This document shows, one piece after another, positions 1 through 39,124 of a DNA stretch of 39,124 nucleotides. The notes beneath the pieces are model-generated. The model searched no databases. It was not told the DNA's origin and saw only the letters and a list, made by a program, of their open reading frames with translations. Source of the DNA: a virus; the IMG/VR virus record IMGVR_UViG_3300021399_000040; one strand, written 5' to 3'. How positions within the stretch are numbered: position 1 is the first letter of the stretch; each line of letters opens with the position of its first letter. Position numbers and translations under genes: made by a program.

Positions 1-127
1 GCTGTACGAAGGAATGAAATCCGGCTGGAACTATGTGAAGTCCTTCATGAAGACAAAGAAGGGCGTCCTGTTCCCGGAAGAGGTCGGCGGATCCGCGACG
101 ACATACTTCAAGTCGGCCTTCTACGGT
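1..127. repeat. Terminal direct duplication (copy 1), identical to 38998-39124
   Basis: Read directly: gctgtacgaaggaatgaaatccggctgg...tcggccttctacggt occurs at both window ends. This is consistent with assembly overlap of a circular or terminally redundant molecule. Confidence 0.97.
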
Positions 128-295
128 ACCGGCTCCGCCGGGGTTCGCTGCCCGTGGCGGTTCGCGGCCTTGTACAACGGGGCGAATGCCGGGCTGGCGT
201 GCGAGACTGGCAGCTACGCGCCCGGTAACGCGTACTGGTACAGCCGTCCGCGGCTTTGTGGAGCGGGTAAAAAGCGGGGTGAATGGACGTCGTAA
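1..295 (+). CDS. 3' end of the DGR target gene (tail/receptor-binding protein), with a C-terminal C-type-lectin-like variable region. It continues from 37583-39124.
   Basis: The frame is continuous with the open ORF that runs off the window end (39011 = 14 + 38997, same phase). The C-terminus reads ...GVRCPWRFAALYNGANAGLACETGSYAPGNAYWYSRPRLCGAG..., and the stop TAA is at 293-295. The track ORF 14..295 is only the part after an internal Met. Confidence 0.9.
   Translation, partial: LYEGMKSGWNYVKSFMKTKKGVLFPEEVGGSATTYFKSAFYGTGSAGVRCPWRFAALYNGANAGLACETGSYAPGNAYWYSRPRLCGAGKKRGEWTS
113..256 (+). repeat. DGR variable repeat (VR) at the 3' end of the target gene
   Basis: Hand alignment to 358-501 (offset 245) gives 133/144 identical bases. 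The 11 differences are at VR 122, 167, 168, 173, 207, 213, 215, 218, 233, 239 and 253. Every one lies opposite an A in the other copy. Confidence 0.93.
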
Positions 296-303
296 GACGT
301 CCA
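284..303 (+). promoter_or_regulatory. Stem-loop just downstream of VR (8-bp stem, GTAA tetraloop); candidate DGR target-recognition hairpin
   Basis: The sequence tggacgtc-gtaa-gacgtcca is read directly, and the stop codon TAA sits in the loop. A second 5-bp hairpin, agggg-gaagt-cccct, lies at 305-319. Bordetella-phage DGR homing needs a GC-rich hairpin with a 4-nt loop 3' of VR. Confidence 0.5.
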
Positions 304-357
304 GAGGGGGAAGTCCCCTGATGTAACTATAGACAATCAGGGTATGCAGGCGCGGGA

Positions 358-501
358 TCGGCCTTCAACGGTACCGGCTCCGCCGGGGTTCGCTGCCCGT
401 GGCGGTTCGCGAACTTGAACAACGGGGCGAATGCCGGGCTGGCGTGCGAGAATGGCAACAACACGCCCGGTAACGCGAACTGGAACAGCCGTCCGCGACT
501 T
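358..501 (+). repeat. DGR template repeat (TR)
   Basis: This is the non-coding copy of VR. It contains 27 adenines, 11 of which are substituted in VR, while none of the 117 non-A positions differ. In the VR frame it reads SAFNGTGSAGVRCPWRFANLNNGANAGLACENGNNTPGNANWNSRPRL, which is rich in AAC/AAT codons. Confidence 0.93.
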
Positions 502-692
502 ATTTTCATGAAGGCAGGCGAAAGTCTGCTGATGTGCGCCTGCATATCCGTGCGCAAGCAAAAATCAGTAAAACCGGAATCTTCGAAAGGGGAACACGCA
601 GCTGTGGGCTGCGCGTGCGGCAAGTAGTAACAAGGCCGGATCTGCTTTAAGGTCAGACCGCAACCGAACGCCGCTTCACAAAATAAAGAATT
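502..692 (+). ncRNA. TR-RT spacer, probably the 3' part of the DGR template RNA
   Basis: This is about 190 nt with no convincing ORF, lying between TR and the RT start. Local stems are visible, for example gcaggcg(513-519)/cgcctgc(537-543) and cgcagc/gctgcg near 597-613. In the Bordetella DGR the spacer RNA primes cDNA synthesis. The function here is inferred from position only. Confidence 0.45.
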
Positions 693-2081
693 ATGCACAC
701 GAAGAGATACAGGAAGCTGTCCCTGAAGCTATGCGAAGAAGCAGTCGAAGAATGTTTCAAAAGCAAATGGAAGCGCCGCGACATTCTGGTATTCATCGAG
801 AAGTACGCCGGAATCGGAAGGACGGAAATCCTGATCGACGATCTGTCCGGATCCAGACGTGTGAAGGAAGAAGCGATCCATTCGATCGGGCTGATGCTGT
901 ACGGCGTCGTGGAAGATCTGGTCGAATACGGGATCGAACCGGACGACATGGAGCCGCCGACGATCCGCCAGCGTCCGGACGGCATGACAGGGAAGACGCG
1001 GGACATCGCACTGCTGTCCATCCTGCATCAGCTGATCGGACACGTCGAAAAGCTGATGATTGAACCGCTGATCAACGCGCGGCTTCTGCCGACGCAGCAC
1101 GCCAGCATTCCGGGACGCGGTCAGACGCTGCTGAAGGATCAGGCGCACAGATACCTTCTGAAGGAGACGGTCGGCGTCAGGTACATCCAGAAGACGGACG
1201 TCGTCCACGCATACGCGACGCTGAAGTATCAGGTCTGCGTGGACATCCTGAAGAAGGAGATCCCGAAAGCGAAGGCCGCGATCGTCCTGCTGGAATATCT
1301 GGGACGGATCGCACCGGACGGGCATCTGATCATCGGCGGGTACATCGACGCCTGGCTGTTCAATTTCACGATGTCCTACGCGATCCGCGACCTGTACGCA
1401 CAGGGAACCACACGGCGCGGGAAGAAGATCCCGTATGTGATCCGCGTCGTCACCTTCATGGATGACTTCGCGCTGATGTCCGGATCCGTCAAAGGACTGA
1501 AGCGGGCGACGAAGCGCCTGGACAAATACTTCCGGAAGGAAATGGGAATCGAACTGAAGACGACATCCGGAATCAGTAAGATCCTGACGGTCGAAGAAGA
1601 GAAGCGACGACGGAGCCTTCCGGGAAAAGCGCAGCGTGGCGTCCCGATGCTGGACATGGCGGGATACAGGATCAGCAGGACGCACATCACGATCCGCAGG
1701 CGCGTCTTCCGGAGGGCACGAAGGCAGCTGATCAGAGGATACAGAGAGCTGAAGAAAACGGGAACACTGCGGCGGGATCGTGCACAGAAAATCATATCGT
1801 ACAACAGCTACGTGAAGCAGACGGATTCGCACGGGCTGAAGGAAAAGTACCACGTGGAAGAACTGATCAAGATGGCTGAACAGGTTCAGGGATTCTATCA
1901 GCGGCTGGATCAGCAGAAAAGAAAGGAGTGGCTGCATGTATTACAAGAGCGACGCGGCAGAGAAGCCGCAGAAGGTGACGCTGGAACATCTGCCGGGCGG
2001 GAAGATCTTCGTCCGTCTTGCGGACAATATCCAGCCGTACAAACAGGAGGATCAGCCGGATCGGACGATGTACCGTTTTGA
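693..2081 (+). CDS. DGR-associated reverse transcriptase (divergent)
   Basis: RT palm motifs are readable: ...SIPGRGQ..., KTDVVHAYATLK, IIGGYIDAWLFNF and VVTFMDDFALM (the YxDD-type catalytic motif). It sits immediately downstream of TR. No Shine-Dalgarno sequence lies before the ATG, unlike neighbouring genes. The last ~48 codons overlap the next gene and look low-complexity. Confidence 0.88.
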   Translation: MHTKRYRKLSLKLCEEAVEECFKSKWKRRDILVFIEKYAGIGRTEILIDDLSGSRRVKEEAIHSIGLMLYGVVEDLVEYGIEPDDMEPPTIRQRPDGMTGKTRDIALLSILHQLIGHVEKLMIEPLINARLLPTQHASIPGRGQTLLKDQAHRYLLKETVGVRYIQKTDVVHAYATLKYQVCVDILKKEIPKAKAAIVLLEYLGRIAPDGHLIIGGYIDAWLFNFTMSYAIRDLYAQGTTRRGKKIPYVIRVVTFMDDFALMSGSVKGLKRATKRLDKYFRKEMGIELKTTSGISKILTVEEEKRRRSLPGKAQRGVPMLDMAGYRISRTHITIRRRVFRRARRQLIRGYRELKKTGTLRRDRAQKIISYNSYVKQTDSHGLKEKYHVEELIKMAEQVQGFYQRLDQQKRKEWLHVLQERRGREAAEGDAGTSAGREDLRPSCGQYPAVQTGGSAGSDDVPF

Positions 2082-2319
2082 CGAAGTCCAGTTCTTCATG
2101 CCGGACGGCAAGGCCGCGACGGCGCAGGAGATCGAAGAGGACTTCGCGACATGGTGGCAGTACGGGATGGATGATGTGCATCCGGATCCGGATCCGCCAG
2201 CGCCTGAAGAAGAAGCGATGACACGGGCGCAGCTGACGAAGATCGTCAGCGAACAGAAAGAGCAGATCGCCATGCTGGAAGATTGCATCTTGGAGATGTC
2301 GGAAGTGGTATACGAATGA
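1936..2319 (+). CDS. Hypothetical protein, XkdW-like by position (between the tail fibre and the lysis genes)
   Basis: An RBS aaaggag lies about 8 nt upstream. The C-terminus is an acidic coiled coil ...QLTKIVSEQKEQIAMLEDCILEMSEVVYE. The gene overlaps the RT ORF by 146 nt. Confidence 0.6.
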   Translation: MYYKSDAAEKPQKVTLEHLPGGKIFVRLADNIQPYKQEDQPDRTMYRFDEVQFFMPDGKAATAQEIEEDFATWWQYGMDDVHPDPDPPAPEEEAMTRAQLTKIVSEQKEQIAMLEDCILEMSEVVYE

Positions 2320-2768: not shown

Positions 2769-3098
2769 ATGACACCACAGTGGGCTACGGTTCTACTTTC
2801 TGTTCTGGCGCTTGCATTTTCGATCTACAGCGGAATCCGCGCGAACGGGAAAACGGATCGCAAGGATGCGGAGGAAGCAGGAAAGCAGGAATCCGCCGTC
2901 ATGATGAAACTGGAAGTCGTTCAGAACACACTGCTGGAAGTGAAGCAGGACATCAAGTCGCAGAAACTTGAAATGGAGAAGATGAACGAACGGACTATCA
3001 GGAACGAAGAAAGCCTGAAATCCCTGCACAAACGTGTGGACAGGATGGAAGCACTTCTTCAGCTGTCGCCGGATGCGGTGACACACGAAACACACTAA
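2769..3098 (+). CDS. Membrane protein with an N-terminal TM helix and a coiled coil (XhlA-like lysis-associated protein by position)
   Basis: An RBS aaggagg lies at 2752-2758. A TM segment WATVLLSVLALAFSIYSGI is followed by heptad-rich sequence. The gene is located directly upstream of the holin. Confidence 0.65.
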   Translation: MTPQWATVLLSVLALAFSIYSGIRANGKTDRKDAEEAGKQESAVMMKLEVVQNTLLEVKQDIKSQKLEMEKMNERTIRNEESLKSLHKRVDRMEALLQLSPDAVTHETH

Positions 3099-3162
3099 AC
3101 AAAGAATCGAGCGCGGAAGGGCGCGAAGGCGTCCTTCCGTATGCCAGGAAGGAGAAAACAAC

Positions 3163-3414
3163 ATGATCAACTGGAAAGTGAGAATCAAGAATAAAGTGTT
3201 CTGGCTGGCGATCATCCCTGCCGTTCTGACGCTGATCAAGGCGATCGCGGCGCTGTTCGGCTTCCAGATCGAGACGGAAGCAGTCGGCACGCAGCTGATC
3301 CAGATCGTCGAAGCAGTCTTCGCTGTGCTGGTCATCCTGGGCGTGACCGTGGATCCCACAACGAAGGGCGTGTCAGATTCTGACCGGGCGATGCTTTACG
3401 ACGAACCGAACTAA
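3163..3414 (+). CDS. Holin, phi LC3 / Phage_holin_1 type
   Basis: The product begins MINWKVRIKNKVFWLAIIPAVLTLIKAIAALFGF, has a second TM segment, and carries the conserved VDPTTKGVSDSDRAMLYDEP tail. It lies immediately upstream of the endolysin. Confidence 0.9.
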   Translation: MINWKVRIKNKVFWLAIIPAVLTLIKAIAALFGFQIETEAVGTQLIQIVEAVFAVLVILGVTVDPTTKGVSDSDRAMLYDEPN

Positions 3415-3432
3415 GGAAGGAGGGAAGCAGGC

Positions 3433-4890
3433 ATGAAGAAGACAGAGTTCATCGAGCGGATCGCGGGATATGTCGAGAAGTACGCCTACGTGTACGGGAT
3501 CATGGTACATTCACCGATCATCGCGCAGGCGATCCTTGAATCCGGATGGGGCGAATCGAAACTTGCTTCCCTGTATCATAACTATTTCGGACTGAAGTGC
3601 GGAACAAGGTGGACAGGGAAGTCGGTAAACATGAAGACCAGCGAAGAGTACACGCCGGGCGTGCACACGCAGATCCGCGACAACTTCCGCGTGTATGACA
3701 GCATGGAAGAGGGCGTGCGCGGATACTTCGAATTCATTCAGCTGGACAGATACAGGAATCTGCGCGGCGTCACGGATCCGCAGCAGTACCTGGAAAACAT
3801 CAAGGCCGACGGCTATGCGACATCCAGCACGTACGTCGACAATCTGATGAAGCTGGTCAGGCAGTACAACCTGACACAGTACGACAAAAACGCAGGAAAG
3901 GAAGATGTCAAAGTGGGATATTCAAGACAGAAAGTCGCCGATCAGGCGGAAGCATGGGTCGGCCTGAAGGAATCGGACGGATCCTTCAAGGCGATCATCG
4001 ACATTTACAATAGCAAAGAACCGTTCCCGCGCGGGACGAAGATGCTGTATTCGTGGCCGTGGTGCGCGGCTACATGGTCGGCGATCGCGAAGAAGCTGGG
4101 ATACACGGCAGTGATGCCCGTCGAAATCAGCTGCTATTACATCATCGAAGAAGCGAAGAAGATGGGATGCTGGCAGGAAGCGGACGACTACGTTCCGAAC
4201 ATCGGCGACGCTGTGCTGTATGACTGGTCTGATTCCGGATCTGGCGACAACAAGGCCGCGCCGGATCACATCGGAACCGTGACCTATGCGAACAGATCCG
4301 CCGGGTACTTCGTCGTCACTGAAGGAAACTATTCCAACAGCGTGAAGAAGCGCACGATCGACATCAACGGAAGATTCATCCGCGGATTCATCACGCCGCA
4401 CTATACAGACAATACAGTGAAGGCGGAAAGCGATCAGCGCAAGGCCGGAAAGAGCGTCGACACGATCGCCCGCGAAGTCATCACTGGACTGTGGGGCAAC
4501 GGATCCGACAGAGTGGCGAACCTGAAGGCGAAGGGCTACGATCCGGCAGCAGTGCAGAAGAGGGTGAACGAGATCCTGAACGGAACGACCGCGAAGAAGC
4601 AGGAACAGGCAGCACCGACATCCGGAAAGAAGGAAGTCACATCCACGTGCTACGCGCGCGGGAAGGACGCCAGACTGTCCGGGGCATATACGGCGACGGC
4701 GGATCTGTACTGCCGAAACGATGCCGGAACAAACAAGAAGGCACTGTGCTGTATGCCCGCAGGAACGAAGGTTCACTGCTATGGATACTACAGCACGGCG
4801 AACGGCGTGAAGTGGCTGTACATTCAGTTCGAACTGAATGGCGTGACATATACAGGATTCAGTTCTTCCGCATACCTGAAGAAGGTGTGA
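3433..4890 (+). CDS. Multidomain endolysin: GH73 glucosaminidase, CHAP, CW_7 and SH3b
   Basis: The GH73 motif is AQAILESGWGESKLA...NYFGLK. The CHAP Cys/His residues are in WPWCAATWS...PDHIGTV...EGNYS. The Cpl-7/CW_7 repeat is IAREVITGLWGNGSDRVANLKAKGYDPAAVQKRVNEIL. The C-terminus is SH3-like. Confidence 0.93.
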   Translation: MKKTEFIERIAGYVEKYAYVYGIMVHSPIIAQAILESGWGESKLASLYHNYFGLKCGTRWTGKSVNMKTSEEYTPGVHTQIRDNFRVYDSMEEGVRGYFEFIQLDRYRNLRGVTDPQQYLENIKADGYATSSTYVDNLMKLVRQYNLTQYDKNAGKEDVKVGYSRQKVADQAEAWVGLKESDGSFKAIIDIYNSKEPFPRGTKMLYSWPWCAATWSAIAKKLGYTAVMPVEISCYYIIEEAKKMGCWQEADDYVPNIGDAVLYDWSDSGSGDNKAAPDHIGTVTYANRSAGYFVVTEGNYSNSVKKRTIDINGRFIRGFITPHYTDNTVKAESDQRKAGKSVDTIAREVITGLWGNGSDRVANLKAKGYDPAAVQKRVNEILNGTTAKKQEQAAPTSGKKEVTSTCYARGKDARLSGAYTATADLYCRNDAGTNKKALCCMPAGTKVHCYGYYSTANGVKWLYIQFELNGVTYTGFSSSAYLKKV

Positions 4891-4918
4891 TCAGGAAGAA
4901 CGGGAAGGAGATGATCGA

Positions 4919-5374
4919 ATGTATTATGCAGGAAAAGACTTCGAGAGCGCGAAGGAGTACAAGACGCTGGAAGGCGCGAAGAAGGCAGCAGACAAGAACG
5001 GCCTGAACGTGTATGATGAAGATGCTGCACAGATCTATCCGGAACCTGTCGCGGATCCGGAAGAGGATCAGCAGCAGGAGGAGCAGGCGGCAGCGGCAGA
5101 CGAAGCCGTGCAGGAGCAGGAGGGCGACCAGCAGCAGGAGCAGGCCGAAGTGAAGGAAGAGGACGTGAAGGGAACGATCCGCCGCGTCTTCGACGGGAAG
5201 CTGCGTCTGCGCCGCGAACCTTCCTTCGATGACAGCGCGATCTGCGGCGTGACGGCCTTCGATGTGAAGAAGGCTGTGAAGAAGTTCACCACGCCGGACG
5301 GCGTCCTGTACCAGACAGCGGACGGATACTTCGTCAGCGGCAGGCCGGGCGACGTGGAGTTCATCCCGGAATAA
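4919..5374 (+). CDS. Hypothetical protein with an acidic Q/E-rich linker (post-lysis moron position)
   Basis: An RBS gggaaggag precedes the start. The ORF is the last + strand gene before the lysogeny module and has no recognisable domain. Confidence 0.6.
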   Translation: MYYAGKDFESAKEYKTLEGAKKAADKNGLNVYDEDAAQIYPEPVADPEEDQQQEEQAAAADEAVQEQEGDQQQEQAEVKEEDVKGTIRRVFDGKLRLRREPSFDDSAICGVTAFDVKKAVKKFTTPDGVLYQTADGYFVSGRPGDVEFIPE

Positions 5375-5428
5375 GAAAAAAGATGTACCTAATTCGGCGT
5401 CACCTTCGGGCAACGCTGAATTAGGTGC
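5372..5428 (-). terminator. Long imperfect hairpin with a UUCG-type loop; intrinsic terminator for the integrase gene, possibly bidirectional
   Basis: The arms are 5385-5404 and 5409-5428, forming a ~20-bp stem with 2 G-U pairs and a 2-nt mismatch. On the minus strand the stem is followed by atcttttttctt. It lies between convergent genes. Confidence 0.6.
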
Positions 5429-5435
5429 ATCATTA

Positions 5436-6842
5436 TCATAAAAAAATAATGTCGGCGATGCTGCCGTCTTCACGAATGCGTATGGTGTCCACGAAGGACT
5501 TCCAGAACGCATTTTTTTCTTGCACGGAAAAGTCACTGTACACATCTTCCCATGGCTGCGACAGGAATTTCTTCAGTTCGCTGACGTCCTTCCGGGGATG
5601 ATCGGCAGCGGTCAGCGCTTCCTGAAGCTGGGCGTTCAGCTGATCGTATTCGGATTTGTACAGATCGCGGTCGATCAGATCGTCCATGAACAGGTCGTAC
5701 AGCTTCTTCAGCTTCGTCCGGATCCGGGCGGCATCAGCTGCCGGATTCCTACCGCGACTGCCGCCGTCTTCCACATCATAGTCCGCGATGTATGCGGAGA
5801 GGGACGGGCGGACAAGAGCCAGGACGCGATCTTCAAGGACTTCTTCCATCCACGACTTGTTATTCGTGCAGCTGTGGTTCATGTTCCACGCTGTGCATCT
5901 GTACCGCGGCTTCCGGGTAATGGATCCATCCTTCCGGCGACGGCCTGTCGTATATCCTGCGATAGAGCGACCGCAGACGTCACAGGTCAAAAGACCGCTG
6001 AAGATAAACTGCGTACCGCTTCGGCGCTGGCGCACGTTTTTCTTGATCAGCGTCTGGATGTGGTCGAAGCGATCCGGATCTATCAGAGGATCGCAGAACT
6101 GCGGATCGTCGCGGTACATTCCCTTGTACAGGGGATTCTTCAGCATCCGGATGAAGCTGCTGTACGAATAGATGCAGCTGTACCGTTCCTGTAGAGCGAA
6201 AAGGGACTTCCGGACGGATCCGGTCACTTCCAGCATGTCGAAGGCATCCAGCGCGAACTGCTTCCATTCCGGATCGGGAACGACATGTTTTTCGGCGTCG
6301 AGCATCAGGCCGCGCGGGACGGATCCGGTCACGAAGGACTTGTTCTTCAGCTTGAACGCGAACACGTCCTTGATGCGGTCGCTGTCACGATCACATTCAT
6401 CTTGCGCCACGGACAGGCGGATATTGATGTGCAGCCTGCCGTTCGTCGTGGTCGTGTCGTATGATTCCGTCACGGCCTTCCATTGGACGCCGTTCGCTTC
6501 CAGAACTTCCTGTATTTTGTGATAGTCGCCGATATTCCTGAACCAGCGATCCAGCTTCGTGAAAAGGATCACGTCGAAGTCATGCCGCCGGACGCCGTCA
6601 AGGAGCCGGACGAATTCCTTCCGGTTCGTGTATTTCTTCCGGGCGGTCAGTGCTTCGTCGATGAATGTGTCGATCAGGACGCAGTGATTCCGGGCGATGA
6701 AGTCGTCCAGTATTTCGTTCTGTGCTTCCAGCGTGTCGCCGTGAAGAACCTGATCGTCGTGGCTGCACCGGATGTATTTGACGACGCGGACGCCGTACAG
6801 TTCCGGGGCTGACTGTGTCATATACATCAGATCACCTTCCAT
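5436..6842 (-). CDS. int: Large serine recombinase (phage integrase)
   Basis: The N-terminal resolvase domain reads VVKYIRCSHDDQ...FTKLDRWFRN...RLSVAQDE. A recombinase domain follows, then a Cys-rich zinc ribbon (CDVCGRSIAG...YRCTAWNMNHSC) and a C-terminal coiled coil. The likely start is the Met at 6821, with RBS ggaaggtga at 6839-6831. Confidence 0.93.
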   Translation of the reverse strand: MEGDLMYMTQSAPELYGVRVVKYIRCSHDDQVLHGDTLEAQNEILDDFIARNHCVLIDTFIDEALTARKKYTNRKEFVRLLDGVRRHDFDVILFTKLDRWFRNIGDYHKIQEVLEANGVQWKAVTESYDTTTTNGRLHINIRLSVAQDECDRDSDRIKDVFAFKLKNKSFVTGSVPRGLMLDAEKHVVPDPEWKQFALDAFDMLEVTGSVRKSLFALQERYSCIYSYSSFIRMLKNPLYKGMYRDDPQFCDPLIDPDRFDHIQTLIKKNVRQRRSGTQFIFSGLLTCDVCGRSIAGYTTGRRRKDGSITRKPRYRCTAWNMNHSCTNNKSWMEEVLEDRVLALVRPSLSAYIADYDVEDGGSRGRNPAADAARIRTKLKKLYDLFMDDLIDRDLYKSEYDQLNAQLQEALTAADHPRKDVSELKKFLSQPWEDVYSDFSVQEKNAFWKSFVDTIRIREDGSIADIIFL

Positions 6843-36760: not shown

Positions 36761-37567
36761 ATGAGCCTGAACAGGGTCATCAAAAGACTGAAGATCGAGA
36801 TGTCAGGATCTACGAAGCAGTATCAGGTATCGGCGAAGCAGCACGACAGGGCGACACGGTACGTCGAAATTCAGCTGCTGAATCAGGGCGCAGACTATGA
36901 GATCCCGCCCGGATCGAACGTCACGGCCTACATCAAGAAGCCGGATCTGAAGCGGGCATATTCGCCGTGCACGTTTTCCGGGTCTGTCGTCACGATGGAA
37001 CTGACGTCGCAGACACTGGCGGCAGCGGGGACGGCACTGGCAGAAATCGAAGTGAAGTCCGGGGACATGACCGAAGTCATCACGTCCTGCACATTCGAAA
37101 TCGAGATCGAACCGTGCGTCAAGGACGAAGACGCCATCATATCCGGCGATGAAATGTCACTGTTCGACGCGACCATGAAGGCATACGCGGAAGCGGAAGC
37201 CGCCCGCGTGACCGCAGAGAACGCCAGAAAGACGGCAGAGAACAGGCGCGTCAGCGCAGAGACAGGCCGCGCAAATGCGGAGAACGCCCGCGTGACCGCA
37301 GAGAACGCCCGCGTCGAAGCAGAGAACGCCCGCGTCGAAGCAGAGAACGCCCGCGTGACCGCAGAGAACGGACGCGTCACAGCAGAGAACGCGCGGCAGG
37401 AGAACGCGACGATCGTCCTGAATAAGGCGAATGAAGCCGTGGAGATCGCAAGCCAGATCAATGAAGCGTCGTACATCTACGACAGCGACAACGATGTGAA
37501 ATATGCGTATGCGATCTACGCGCAGCGGGGCGTCCCGCACATGTCACTGACAAAGATCACAGCATAA
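36761..37567 (+). CDS. BppU-N-like baseplate/fibre protein with a heptad-repeat coiled coil
   Basis: The RBS is gaaaggagg. The N-terminus ...QYQVSAKQHDRATRYVEIQLLNQGADYEIP...VTAYIKKPD... resembles the BppU N-domain. About 10 AENARVx heptads follow. Confidence 0.7.
   Translation: MSLNRVIKRLKIEMSGSTKQYQVSAKQHDRATRYVEIQLLNQGADYEIPPGSNVTAYIKKPDLKRAYSPCTFSGSVVTMELTSQTLAAAGTALAEIEVKSGDMTEVITSCTFEIEIEPCVKDEDAIISGDEMSLFDATMKAYAEAEAARVTAENARKTAENRRVSAETGRANAENARVTAENARVEAENARVEAENARVTAENGRVTAENARQENATIVLNKANEAVEIASQINEASYIYDSDNDVKYAYAIYAQRGVPHMSLTKITA
37195..37402 (+). repeat. Tandem 21-nt (heptad) repeats, about 10 units, in the fibre gene
   Basis: The unit gcagagaacgcccgcgtgacc and its variants give the translation EAARVT AENARKT AENRRVS AETGRAN AENARVT AENARVE AENARVE AENARVT AENGRVT AENARQE. 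Confidence 0.85.
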
Positions 37568-37582
37568 AGGAGGAACAAGAAA

Positions 37583-39124
37583 ATGGCAGACATGGATCTG
37601 ATTTTCCCTTCGTGGACACAGCACGAACGGATCGCTGCCGCACTGGAATCGATCGCGCTGAACGGCGGGTCATCCGATGCGGCTGTCCTTGACGCGGCGT
37701 GCAAAAGCGTCCTGGACGGAACGAACACCACGCGCGTGTTCTGGGAATTCTATCCGCGCGCAGCAGCAGCAGGAGAGACAAGCAAATACAAGATCCTTGA
37801 AAGATTCGCAAAGGCAGCGGCGCAGGCGTGGAACAGCAAGACGTACACGCTGCGAAGCTATGATGCAGCAGTATCCGGAAACACGGCGATGACGCCGATG
37901 GATGATCTGGCAGGAAAGAACGCTGCGCAGCTGTGCACAGCATCCGACGCAGCGGTCGAGGATTGGGCGGACGAAGATCCGATGACATGGTACATCCGGG
38001 CGAATGCGATGTCCCTGGAAGATGGAACCATGAACATCACATACTTCGAAGGCGAAGACGGATTCGACATCACAGGCGAAGACGCGCCCGTCTGGACGTT
38101 CGCGCTGGCGCTGTGGATCAAGGAATGGAACGACGGGTCGTTCAATTTCATCAGCTTCCGGACGACCAAAGGCGCGGGATTCTATCCGGACGCCGGGGAT
38201 GTCGCACCGGACGGAACGAAGCGGGCGCTGACATGGCATCCTTCATTCCCCGGCGGACTGAACAGCAGCGGCGCGCTGACATCCGGCGCAGGCATCAGGC
38301 CGTACAACTTCGCCAGCGCGACCGCAGGCATCACAGCAGCGCGCAAGATGACGATCTACGAAGGACTGTGGAATGACTGCGATACAAGATGGATCCTGCG
38401 GATGTGGCAGCTGCGGCACTTCGATCTGGAAAACAGCAACATCGCGAACGGCTGCATCAGCTACGACAGACAGTACCAGGTGGCGAAGGCAGAAGAAAAT
38501 GTGAAGCGCGTGATCCTGTCGACGACGCAGGCCGCGAACCTGATCGTCGGTTCGACCGTGTCGATCGGCGACATGGGATCGTCCACGAACAAGGACAGAG
38601 GACAGGCGCACATGCGGAACATTCTGGATCTGGTCAAGATCAGTTCCATCGAAACCGTCACGATCGACGGCGACGAACTGGCAGCGGTCGGCATCGAGAC
38701 GGAAAGCGCATTCACCACGACAGCGACGACATATATTTCGACGATGCCGTGGCATTCCGGCGCGACGGAACTTCTTCCGGGAAGGAAGGACGGATGCCCG
38801 CACGGTCTGACGAATGGAACGTCGCCGCTTCGTGTGGCTGGCGTGGAAGTCCTGGACGGCGCATATGCGGTCGGCCTGGATCCGCTTTATACCGTCACGG
38901 CGAACGCTGTGTCTGATTGGGATTATTCGATCTACGAATGCCGCGACAGTCAGAATCTGGCGGGATCCGTGACATCGAACTACGAAGACACTGGCCTGCT
39001 GTACGAAGGAATGAAATCCGGCTGGAACTATGTGAAGTCCTTCATGAAGACAAAGAAGGGCGTCCTGTTCCCGGAAGAGGTCGGCGGATCCGCGACGACA
39101 TACTTCAAGTCGGCCTTCTACGGT
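37583..39124 (+). CDS. DGR target protein, 5' part (tail fibre / receptor-binding protein). It runs off the window end and continues at 1-295, giving about 569 aa in total.
   Basis: The RBS aaaggagga lies at 37567-37575 and the ATG at 37583. The frame stays open to the last base of the window, so the ORF is absent from the supplied track. It is in phase with the 14..295 ORF across the 127-bp overlap and is the last gene of the tail module. Confidence 0.88.
   Translation, partial: MADMDLIFPSWTQHERIAAALESIALNGGSSDAAVLDAACKSVLDGTNTTRVFWEFYPRAAAAGETSKYKILERFAKAAAQAWNSKTYTLRSYDAAVSGNTAMTPMDDLAGKNAAQLCTASDAAVEDWADEDPMTWYIRANAMSLEDGTMNITYFEGEDGFDITGEDAPVWTFALALWIKEWNDGSFNFISFRTTKGAGFYPDAGDVAPDGTKRALTWHPSFPGGLNSSGALTSGAGIRPYNFASATAGITAARKMTIYEGLWNDCDTRWILRMWQLRHFDLENSNIANGCISYDRQYQVAKAEENVKRVILSTTQAANLIVGSTVSIGDMGSSTNKDRGQAHMRNILDLVKISSIETVTIDGDELAAVGIETESAFTTTATTYISTMPWHSGATELLPGRKDGCPHGLTNGTSPLRVAGVEVLDGAYAVGLDPLYTVTANAVSDWDYSIYECRDSQNLAGSVTSNYEDTGLLYEGMKSGWNYVKSFMKTKKGVLFPEEVGGSATTYFKSAFYG
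38998..39124. repeat. Terminal direct duplication (copy 2), identical to 1-127
   Basis: Same 127 bases as the window start. Position 38998 corresponds to position 1. Confidence 0.97.

Follow-up and report, generated by a model that had tools for sequence, protein, structure and literature searches.

Mutagenic homing, probably without Avd or HRDC, by a diversity-generating retroelement of gut Clostridia phages

How a diversity-generating retroelement (DGR) functions without the accessory protein Avd is an open mechanistic question, and to our knowledge the DGR biochemistry and structures available to date all come from the Avd-dependent Bordetella system. The question is raised by IMG/VR virus record IMGVR_UViG_3300021399_000040, a stretch of 39,124 nucleotides (nt) that we refer to in its full length as the window. 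Here a target gene with a variable repeat (VR) is followed by a template repeat (TR), a 191-nt spacer, a reverse transcriptase (RT) gene and a small open reading frame (ORF) at 1936-2319, and the avd or HRDC gene that is typical, though not universal, for DGRs is not found. A preliminary description had placed the target stop at 295, the TR at 358-501, a spacer of about 190 nt and then the RT, all of which is correct. It left three options for the accessory function, namely fusion to the RT, provision by a protein such as the product of ORF 1936-2319, or a lineage that dispenses with it, and the last of these fits best. We consider it probable that the window carries an active DGR of minimal layout, belonging to a large lineage of temperate phages that infect gut Clostridia, and that it performs adenine-specific mutagenic homing without Avd or HRDC.

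The repeat pair shows that the element is at work. VR and TR differ at 11 positions over 144 nt, all 11 of them on TR adenines, and differences exclusively at TR adenines are also found in 19 of 24 related genome loci, with 9-20 per locus. Eight IMG/VR contigs with 97.4-99.2% identity to the window over 1.8 kb allowed us to follow the VR through a population of nine near-identical genomes. Among these, 27 VR columns vary, of which 26 are at TR adenines, so that 26 of the 27 adenine positions of the TR vary in the VR; just 6 columns vary across the 505 nt from 296 to 800, a region covering TR, spacer and the beginning of the RT gene. The VR is undergoing diversification in natural populations, and the DGR is active in nature. 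Because the VR varies at TR adenines, the lack of Avd and the altered RT motif described below are no signs of decay in this phage. Near the 3′ ends of the repeats, position 253 of the VR is G in all nine genomes, where TR position 498 is A. It is the sole VR/TR difference without variation across the nine genomes, and may be a fixed directional mark resembling the IMH/IMH* (initiation of mutagenic homing) pair of BPP-1.

The search for an accessory gene covered the complete phage. No Pfam match to Avd (PF05635) or HRDC was found to E ~3e-3 in 40-41 small ORFs from the whole genome or in RT residues 1-100, which bears out the preliminary claim that no recognisable accessory gene is present. 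The Pfam families that were matched among the small ORFs (holin, single-stranded DNA-binding protein, small terminase, Dit, connectors, helix-turn-helix proteins) are all expected phage families. Because the entire genome lies within the window, the search is exhaustive for this phage. NCBIfam gave no match for the RT or neighboring proteins, and no Avd chain was retrieved among PDB sequences at E <= 10 with either the RT N-terminus or the profile of the ORF 1936-2319 family. The classical avd slot has no space for a gene, since the VR-TR gap is only about 100-150 nt in most related loci with a detected VR/TR pair; the exceptions are loci L007 and L024, where a homologue of ORF 1936-2319 lies between VR and TR. 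We also considered the ORFs of region 296-692 as hidden accessory genes. These (415-627 and 534-650 on the plus strand, 327-698 on the minus strand) overlap the TR or the spacer, have no family match and, beyond their TR part, are conserved in close relatives only, while the region covaries as RNA; they were rejected, in agreement with their earlier description as apparently spurious. What was called an unusual system is a real DGR without a recognisable Avd or HRDC gene, but the absence of Avd is in itself already documented. In a survey of 372 DGRs, avd was present in 74%, and the 29% without an accessory gene were designated Architecture A; a profile search detected no avd elsewhere in the genomes of Architecture A DGRs (Wu et al. 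2018, PMC5758913).

The adjacent RT is of the DGR class. It matches the phrog_1423 reverse transcriptase family at 2e-35, scores 23.6 bits against RVT_1 versus a Pfam cut-off (gathering threshold) of 29.6, and its family profile finds the Bordetella DGR RT, bRT (8ub7_A), as best PDB match (E 3e-05). The AlphaFold2 (AF2) model (predicted local distance difference test, pLDDT, 87.7; predicted template modeling score, pTM, 0.81) again has 8ub7_A as best Foldseek match (E 1.9e-13, template modeling score 0.82 when normalized to bRT), followed by group II intron RTs, G2L4 and DRT9. As modeled, residues 1 to ~424 are ordered and 425-462 form a disordered tail with pLDDT <50, and the protein is structurally a DGR-type RT whose helical N-terminal extension is slightly enlarged, whose thumb is very basic (isoelectric point, pI, ~11) and which has an extra, long C-terminal helix at 388-422; inserted helices in the fingers/palm region add further length. 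DGR RTs span about 300-500 amino acids (aa) (Wu et al. 2018, PMC5758913). Among the scored candidates, the family of the window RT forms at least 337 clusters when grouped at 90% identity, several of them with hundreds to thousands of members. Its members are found in prophages of gut bacteria from humans and animals, namely Lachnospiraceae, Oscillospiraceae, Faecalibacterium and uncultured Clostridia; loci L001 and L002 represent prophages of Hominifimenecus microfluidus CLA-AA-H215 and Fusicatenibacter faecihominis CLA-AA-H277.

In place of the DGR signature [I/V/L]GxxxSQ the RT reads HLIIGGYIDAWLFNF (IGGYIDA), in which I and G are kept, S is replaced by D (D219) and Q by A (A220). The lack of SQ had been noticed before and holds across the family, as HLIIGGYxDAWLFN is invariant or nearly so in alignments of 30 and 71 sequences. 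The SQ is replaced and not displaced: the RT of outgroup locus L202 (MT835485), which is 25% identical, reads CIGSYLSQYLANYY (IGSYLSQ) at the homologous place, and this settles the register of IGxxxSQ on IGxxxDA. Since L202 shares its N-terminal RT signature, its target family and a small ORF downstream with the window lineage, the change took place within a lineage that was already avd-less. IGxxxDA is a sub-clade replacement of IGxxxSQ, with adenine mutagenesis intact. In bRT, the first motif residue, I181, promotes adenine misincorporation, whereas substitution of the last, Q187P, leaves the misincorporation frequency at adenines unchanged (Handa et al. 2020, PMC7826257). These data agree with activity here, since the window RT keeps the I and loses the Q. 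A scan of viral contigs with an exact, though not exhaustive, pattern for the RT motif returned 43 loci.

Other features of the RT that had seemed atypical can be placed in context. The long N-terminus is real, with about 100 residues before the first conserved RT block, but its length is not exceptional. bRT has about 70 residues ahead of the same block, and bRT residue 72 aligns by profile with family position 99, which makes the extension just ~30 residues longer. It is conserved, is predicted to form four short helices at residues 11-79 (AF2 model), has a pI of 5.7 over residues 1-85, and finds no PDB match by sequence. Likewise, a Shine-Dalgarno (SD) sequence is truly lacking at the window RT: the 20 nt 5′ of its start (gcttcacaaaataaagaatt) contain no GGAGG-like element, in contrast to most genes of the window. 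This trait is limited to the sub-clade of the window, where an A-rich leader at 672-692 (CACAAAATAAAGAATT) is conserved in place of the SD, whereas GGAGG precedes the RT start in more distant relatives. The leader may reflect deliberately low or regulated RT translation. The RT stop codon at 2079-2081 lies beyond the start of the next ORF at 1936, giving the overlap of 146 nt that the preliminary description had reported correctly. The tail of about 38 residues encoded there (425-462) is poorly conserved, varies in length between relatives and, like the missing SD, is in its long form a trait of one sub-clade; the frame that overlaps it encodes the well-conserved N-terminal domain of ORF 1936-2319, and we read the tail as a by-product of the gene overlap. 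A sequencing frameshift within 1900-2081 was considered and rejected, as independent assemblies give the same product of 462-463 aa: a 98%-identical RT protein of 462 aa represents 493 member sequences, and many relatives have 463 aa. The junction ranges among relatives from a small gap through a 4-nt overlap to an overlap of ~146 nt, and because of this variation a conserved RT-ORF fusion through frameshifting is unlikely.

The RNA between and around these genes is conserved and structured. The spacer is retained across loci whose RTs are just ~40% identical, and an alignment of 25 diverse loci displays the invariant motifs AAAATCA..ACCG, AGTAGTA, CTG..AAGG and AACCGAA. RNAalifold predicts 21 pairs in it, 15 of which show compensatory changes, and in the 3′ domain the outer helix encloses AGUAGUA, the inner hairpin and AACCGAA; a search of the spacer against Rfam gave no match. 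A 15-bp duplex joins an arm just 5′ of the TR to one ~35 nt 3′ of it (Table 1). With arms delimited by eye, 90% of cells are paired in 11 loci and 10/15 pairs have compensatory changes; none of 500 shuffles reaches the observed covariation score, and slid registers are only 30-59% paired. Between the TR and the downstream arm, a hairpin (513-530 in the window) occurs at the same post-TR place in most relatives, with different sequences. In BPP-1 these positions are taken by a ‘cPRT Stop’ duplex and an ‘Avd-binding’ stem-loop, which have been predicted in 207/278 Avd-containing DGRs (Handa et al., 10.1101/2023.10.23.563531). The window has both a duplex of the TR flanks and a stem-loop 3′ of the TR, and they match the two elements in position. 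That Avd-type RNA elements persist without Avd is to us the most intriguing point of this locus. A separate hairpin at 285-302 carries the target stop codon in its GTAA loop, is found at the same place in most of 12 relatives and covaries in its stem. It is probably a DNA element that marks the target site, by analogy with the VR-flanking hairpin of BPP-1, reportedly the subject of work by Guo et al. in 2011.

The gene directly downstream of the RT could conceal an accessory factor of another kind. Clustered at 50% identity, its family numbers at least 431 representatives, nearly all of about 100-140 aa, with a pI of 4.25 +/- 0.2. In the AF2 model of the window protein (pLDDT 80.8), residues 1-80 (pLDDT ~90) fold into a sheet of four strands accompanied by two helices, and a disordered, acidic linker leads to a helix at the C-terminus; there is no four-helix bundle. 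No match was found in Pfam, PHROG or NCBIfam, and 20 family members were negative in Pfam at E <= 1. Foldseek of the model against the PDB gave no match (best E 0.35), the family profile found none among PDB sequences, and against BFVD the model matched solely uncharacterised metagenomic siphovirus proteins. Avd is a basic four-helix bundle of ~120-130 aa, and neither ORF 1936-2319 nor RT residues 1-100 conform to this.

Synteny was counted with hidden Markov models built in this analysis. A homologue of ORF 1936-2319 adjoins the RT in 24/24 RT-seeded genome loci. Among the 34 ORF-seeded viral loci, the RT adjoins the homologue in 33 and either RT or target does so in all 34. Seeding with the target recovers the small gene in 60/60 informative loci and the RT in 54/60. 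The usual place of the small gene is directly 3′ of the RT, with an overlap at the RT stop codon; the remote family members P0147, P0152, P0289, P0304 and P0306 likewise each lie directly 3′ of an RT. The small gene lies between VR and TR in L007, L024 and L051, and upstream of the target in L052. The six target-seeded loci without an RT in the examined flanks of about 4.5-6 kb (L113, L115-L118 and L121) belong to one phage lineage, 94-98% identical, with the order target, small ORF, XkdX-like peptide, endolysin. In these loci (about 4500-6600) there is no TR, and the VR-equivalent is near-fixed in five contigs from different samples. Independently, in locus L160 (2997-6348) the target homologue has 987 aa and is accompanied by the small ORF, a CD1375-like peptide and a holin, and no called gene within 6 kb is an RT. 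The RT-less contigs gave no match in the exact-pattern scan for the RT motif, whose pattern is not exhaustive. Both the L113 group and L160 retain the hairpin after the VR together with the small acidic ORF, have no TR or RT nearby, and look like natural ‘DGR-lost’ derivatives. In L068 (1919-2584), the family member P0289, directly 3′ of the RT, carries a C-terminal CBM_5_12 carbohydrate-binding domain. The retention of the small gene beside the target without an RT, the counts of 60/60 versus 54/60 and the CBM_5_12 fusion favor a tail-protein role, and we infer that the product of ORF 1936-2319 probably works with the diversified tail protein, either during assembly or as its companion in the virion, rather than as an RT cofactor.

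There are several other explanations for a DGR of this composition. That the element is decaying or inactive, with the missing Avd and the changed motif as degeneration, is hardly credible. Some relatives do have an RT split into two or three ORFs (L017, L022, L031-L033, L064, L067), and some lineages have lost the RT altogether, but the RT of the window is intact, its motif is invariant in the family alignments, and near-identical genomes differ massively in the VR, nearly always at TR-adenine positions, a population-level variation that rules out decay for the window DGR. A possible but doubtful alternative is that the product of ORF 1936-2319 is itself the missing accessory factor, representing a new acidic, non-Avd family comparable to Avd or to the CH1 proteins of Bacteroides DGRs. 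Much of what speaks for it also weighs against homing without a helper protein, and we collect these points here: the adjacency to the RT in 24/24 RT-seeded genome loci and 33/34 ORF-seeded viral loci, the usual overlap with the RT stop codon, the canonical avd slot between VR and TR occupied in L007, L024 and L051, the retention of the small gene in the SQ-type outgroup L202 with an RT only 25% identical, and the range over which the RT-less loci were examined, about 4.5-6 kb each side of the target. To the same side belong the hairpin at 513-530, whose location at the Avd-binding place of BPP-1 raises the question of its binder here, and the poor conservation of Avd, by which sequence profiles could miss a very divergent helper of the phage or the host; that RT and RNA suffice without a protein cofactor is inferred. 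The five remote members directly 3′ of an RT and a family pI of 4.25 +/- 0.2, near the 4.7 of CH1, further favor the accessory-factor explanation. Against it, the small gene is intact and apparently constrained in two independent lineages with no RT within 4.3-6 kb and a near-fixed VR, lies upstream of the target in L052, encodes an acidic and not a basic protein without a four-helix bundle, carries in one member the sort of carbohydrate-binding module that typifies exposed proteins of virions, and is linked to the target (60/60) more tightly than the RT is (54/60). The option of an accessory function supplied by this ORF, raised in the preliminary description, therefore gains a striking synteny and is nonetheless weakened by survival of the gene without an RT and by an acidic, non-Avd-like product.

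A related idea, which we hold unlikely, is that the family adds a new component to DGRs, one that stands in for Avd or physically links the RT-RNA complex with the tail protein, in which case the lineage would define a third mechanistic type besides Avd and HRDC. It is quite improbable that an Avd-like function is provided in trans, by a divergent phage or host protein, or is built into the N-terminal helical domain of the RT. The post-TR hairpin positioned like the Avd-binding stem-loop, the conserved four-helix domain at RT residues 11-79 and the known poor conservation of Avd sequences would suit such an arrangement. However, no small ORF of the complete genome matches Avd or HRDC, and a profile search of genomes with avd-less DGRs detected no avd elsewhere in them (Wu et al., PMC5758913). 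The N-terminal domain, in turn, is just ~30 residues longer than that of bRT, itself Avd-dependent, and has a pI of 5.7 and no PDB match; its four short helices lend no support to the suggestion that the accessory function is fused to the RT. A lineage that dispenses with Avd remains our preferred explanation. In this mechanism, the TR-spacer RNA would be transcribed together with the late tail and lysis genes and would fold so that the 15-bp duplex joins the TR flanks and the spacer gives the post-TR hairpin and the conserved 3′ domain. The RT would bind this RNA, copy the TR and misincorporate opposite adenines, with priming that may proceed as in BPP-1, and the cDNA would replace the VR, with the conserved hairpin located just 3′ of it.

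Analogous elements help to place the window DGR. By its layout it is assigned to Architecture A1 (TR-RT) in the nomenclature of Wu et al. 2018. Lineage 3 of that survey lacks avd, is probably associated with phages, and has one target per DGR and few changes at bases other than A (Wu et al. 2018, PMC5758913). Like Architecture A and Lineage 3, the window has target, TR and RT on one strand without a recognized accessory gene, is phage-associated, and has a single target with almost purely A-to-N changes; it differs in its SQ-less RT, a motif unmentioned in the text of PMC5758913. With the BPP-1 DGR (mtd-avd-TR-brt) it shares adenine-specific transfer from TR to VR at the 3′ end of a tail-protein gene, a structured spacer RNA between TR and RT gene with a duplex linking the TR flanks and a hairpin directly 3′ of the TR, a short hairpin with a 4-nt loop just downstream of the VR, and an RT whose best sequence and structure match is bRT (8ub7 and related entries). 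Unlike BPP-1, the window lacks an avd gene and has IGxxxDA for IGxxxSQ, its RT has ~420 ordered residues versus 328 and is 18% identical in the structural alignment, and its spacer is unrelated in detail of sequence and fold. The CH1 proteins are small, acidic and motif-less proteins of 160-169 aa and pI 4.7 beside avd-less Bacteroides DGRs (Wu et al. 2018, PMC5758913). Compared by description only, the ORF 1936-2319 family is likewise small, acidic (pI 4.25-4.3) and conserved beside avd-less DGRs, but is mostly of 100-146 aa, comes from Clostridia phages and also occurs where no RT is found.

Cultured Butyrivibrio phages in INPHARED (Arawn, Idris, Closwp03) have a similar arrangement, with a VR-containing tail protein, a TR and an RT, without avd, upstream of the lysis genes. 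As in the window, all VR/TR differences of the Arawn group (9/9) are at A, and an ORF overlapping the RT end weakly matches the 1936-2319 family (E 6e-06, in a small search). In contrast to the window, the RT of this group has ~330-380 aa, a canonical LGNYTSQ and 23% identity to the window RT, and its target protein has no detectable relation to the window target. The avd-less order target, TR, RT and overlapping small ORF is combined with a canonical SQ in both L202 (MT835485, 2561-4462) and L201 (Closwp03, 2854-4785); in L201 the small ORF is annotated as a 43-aa protein, while a frame of 115 aa is open.

DGRs without avd are therefore an established category (Wu et al. 2018, PMC5758913). 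Three traits appear to be undescribed, the supplementary data of large surveys aside: the lack of SQ as a trait of a whole RT family, a small acidic neighbor that is conserved, and Avd-type RNA elements that are retained. The main interest of the lineage is as a tractable model of Avd-independent mutagenic homing: being abundant in gut metagenomes, compact, active in nature and still in possession of Avd-associated RNA elements, it could offer a natural test case. It also shows that adenine mutagenesis in nature can do without the SQ of the DGR RT signature. Screens based on the curated Pfam RVT_1 threshold or on the SQ motif would miss such elements. Should the RT and its RNA prove sufficient, engineered targeted mutagenesis would gain an attractive two-part DGR.

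The coordinates of all features are listed in Table 1. Positions 1-127 and 38998-39124 of the window are an identical 127 bp, indicating a circular assembly of ~38,997 bp, and because the contig is circular the target gene wraps past the junction. The phage genome in the window is circular and complete, at ~39 kb. Its genes for terminase, portal, capsid, tail, tape measure, Dit, holin and endolysin, and the lysogeny module that it carries on the minus strand, fit a complete temperate phage of siphovirus type. The target gene follows tail and baseplate genes and encodes a protein of 569 aa with the VR located C-terminally; from its matches to phrog_17147 and the tail protein family phrog_5302, we classify the product as a tail or receptor-binding protein. 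No promoter or terminator was called around the TR on the plus strand of 1-2600, and the hairpin at 305-319 has no U-run in the window. Downstream of ORF 1936-2319 are a CD1375/XkdX-like peptide, small ORFs, holin and endolysin.

Table 1. Coordinates of the DGR and its associated elements in the window
Feature	Position	Strand	Basis or remark
Target gene, 5′ part	37583..38997	+	ORF reconstruction on circularised sequence
Target gene, 3′ part including VR	1..295	+	Stop codon 293-295
VR, 144 nt	113..256	+	Repeat pair with TR
Hairpin after VR, GGACGTC-GTAA-GACGTCC	285..302	+	Kept in relatives
Second hairpin, AGGGG-GAAGT-CCCCT	305..319	+	Conserved in relatives
TR-flanking duplex, upstream arm	340..354	+	Pairs with 535-549
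TR, 144 nt, 27 adenines	358..501	+	Repeat pair with VR
Spacer RNA between TR and RT, 191 nt	502..692	+	Conserved, structured
Hairpin 3′ of TR, 7-bp stem, GAAA loop	513..530	+	Minimum free energy fold
TR-flanking duplex, downstream arm	535..549	+	Pairs with 340-354
Spacer 3′ domain, hairpin 597-613 and helix 617-621/670-674	597..674	+	RNAalifold consensus, covariation
DGR RT, 462 aa	693..2081	+	phrog_1423; sequence and structure matches to bRT
Small acidic protein, 127 aa, pI 4.3	1936..2319	+	Conserved neighbor of the DGR lineage

Some further observations concern the relatives and the neighboring genes. The RT break is identical in the three independent contigs L031-L033, and L017 and L022 have A-only VR/TR differences despite a broken RT frame; such frames could represent recent decay or some form of recoding. 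Upstream of the target, 36761-37567 encodes a protein with tandem AENARV-type repeats that matches PHROG tail-fibre families. An identity of ORF 1936-2319 as an XkdW-like, PBSX-type tail-region protein was considered on the basis of the xkdV-W-X gene order, the next gene being CD1375/XkdX-like; this candidate found no support, with no Pfam match and a best Foldseek E of 0.35. The next gene itself, at 2379-2516 and 3′ of ORF 1936-2319, encodes a CD1375-like/XkdX-like peptide of 45 aa (Pfam PF23792, 29.7 bits), and the pairing of an ORF 1936-2319 homologue with such a peptide recurs in many relatives, with or without an RT.

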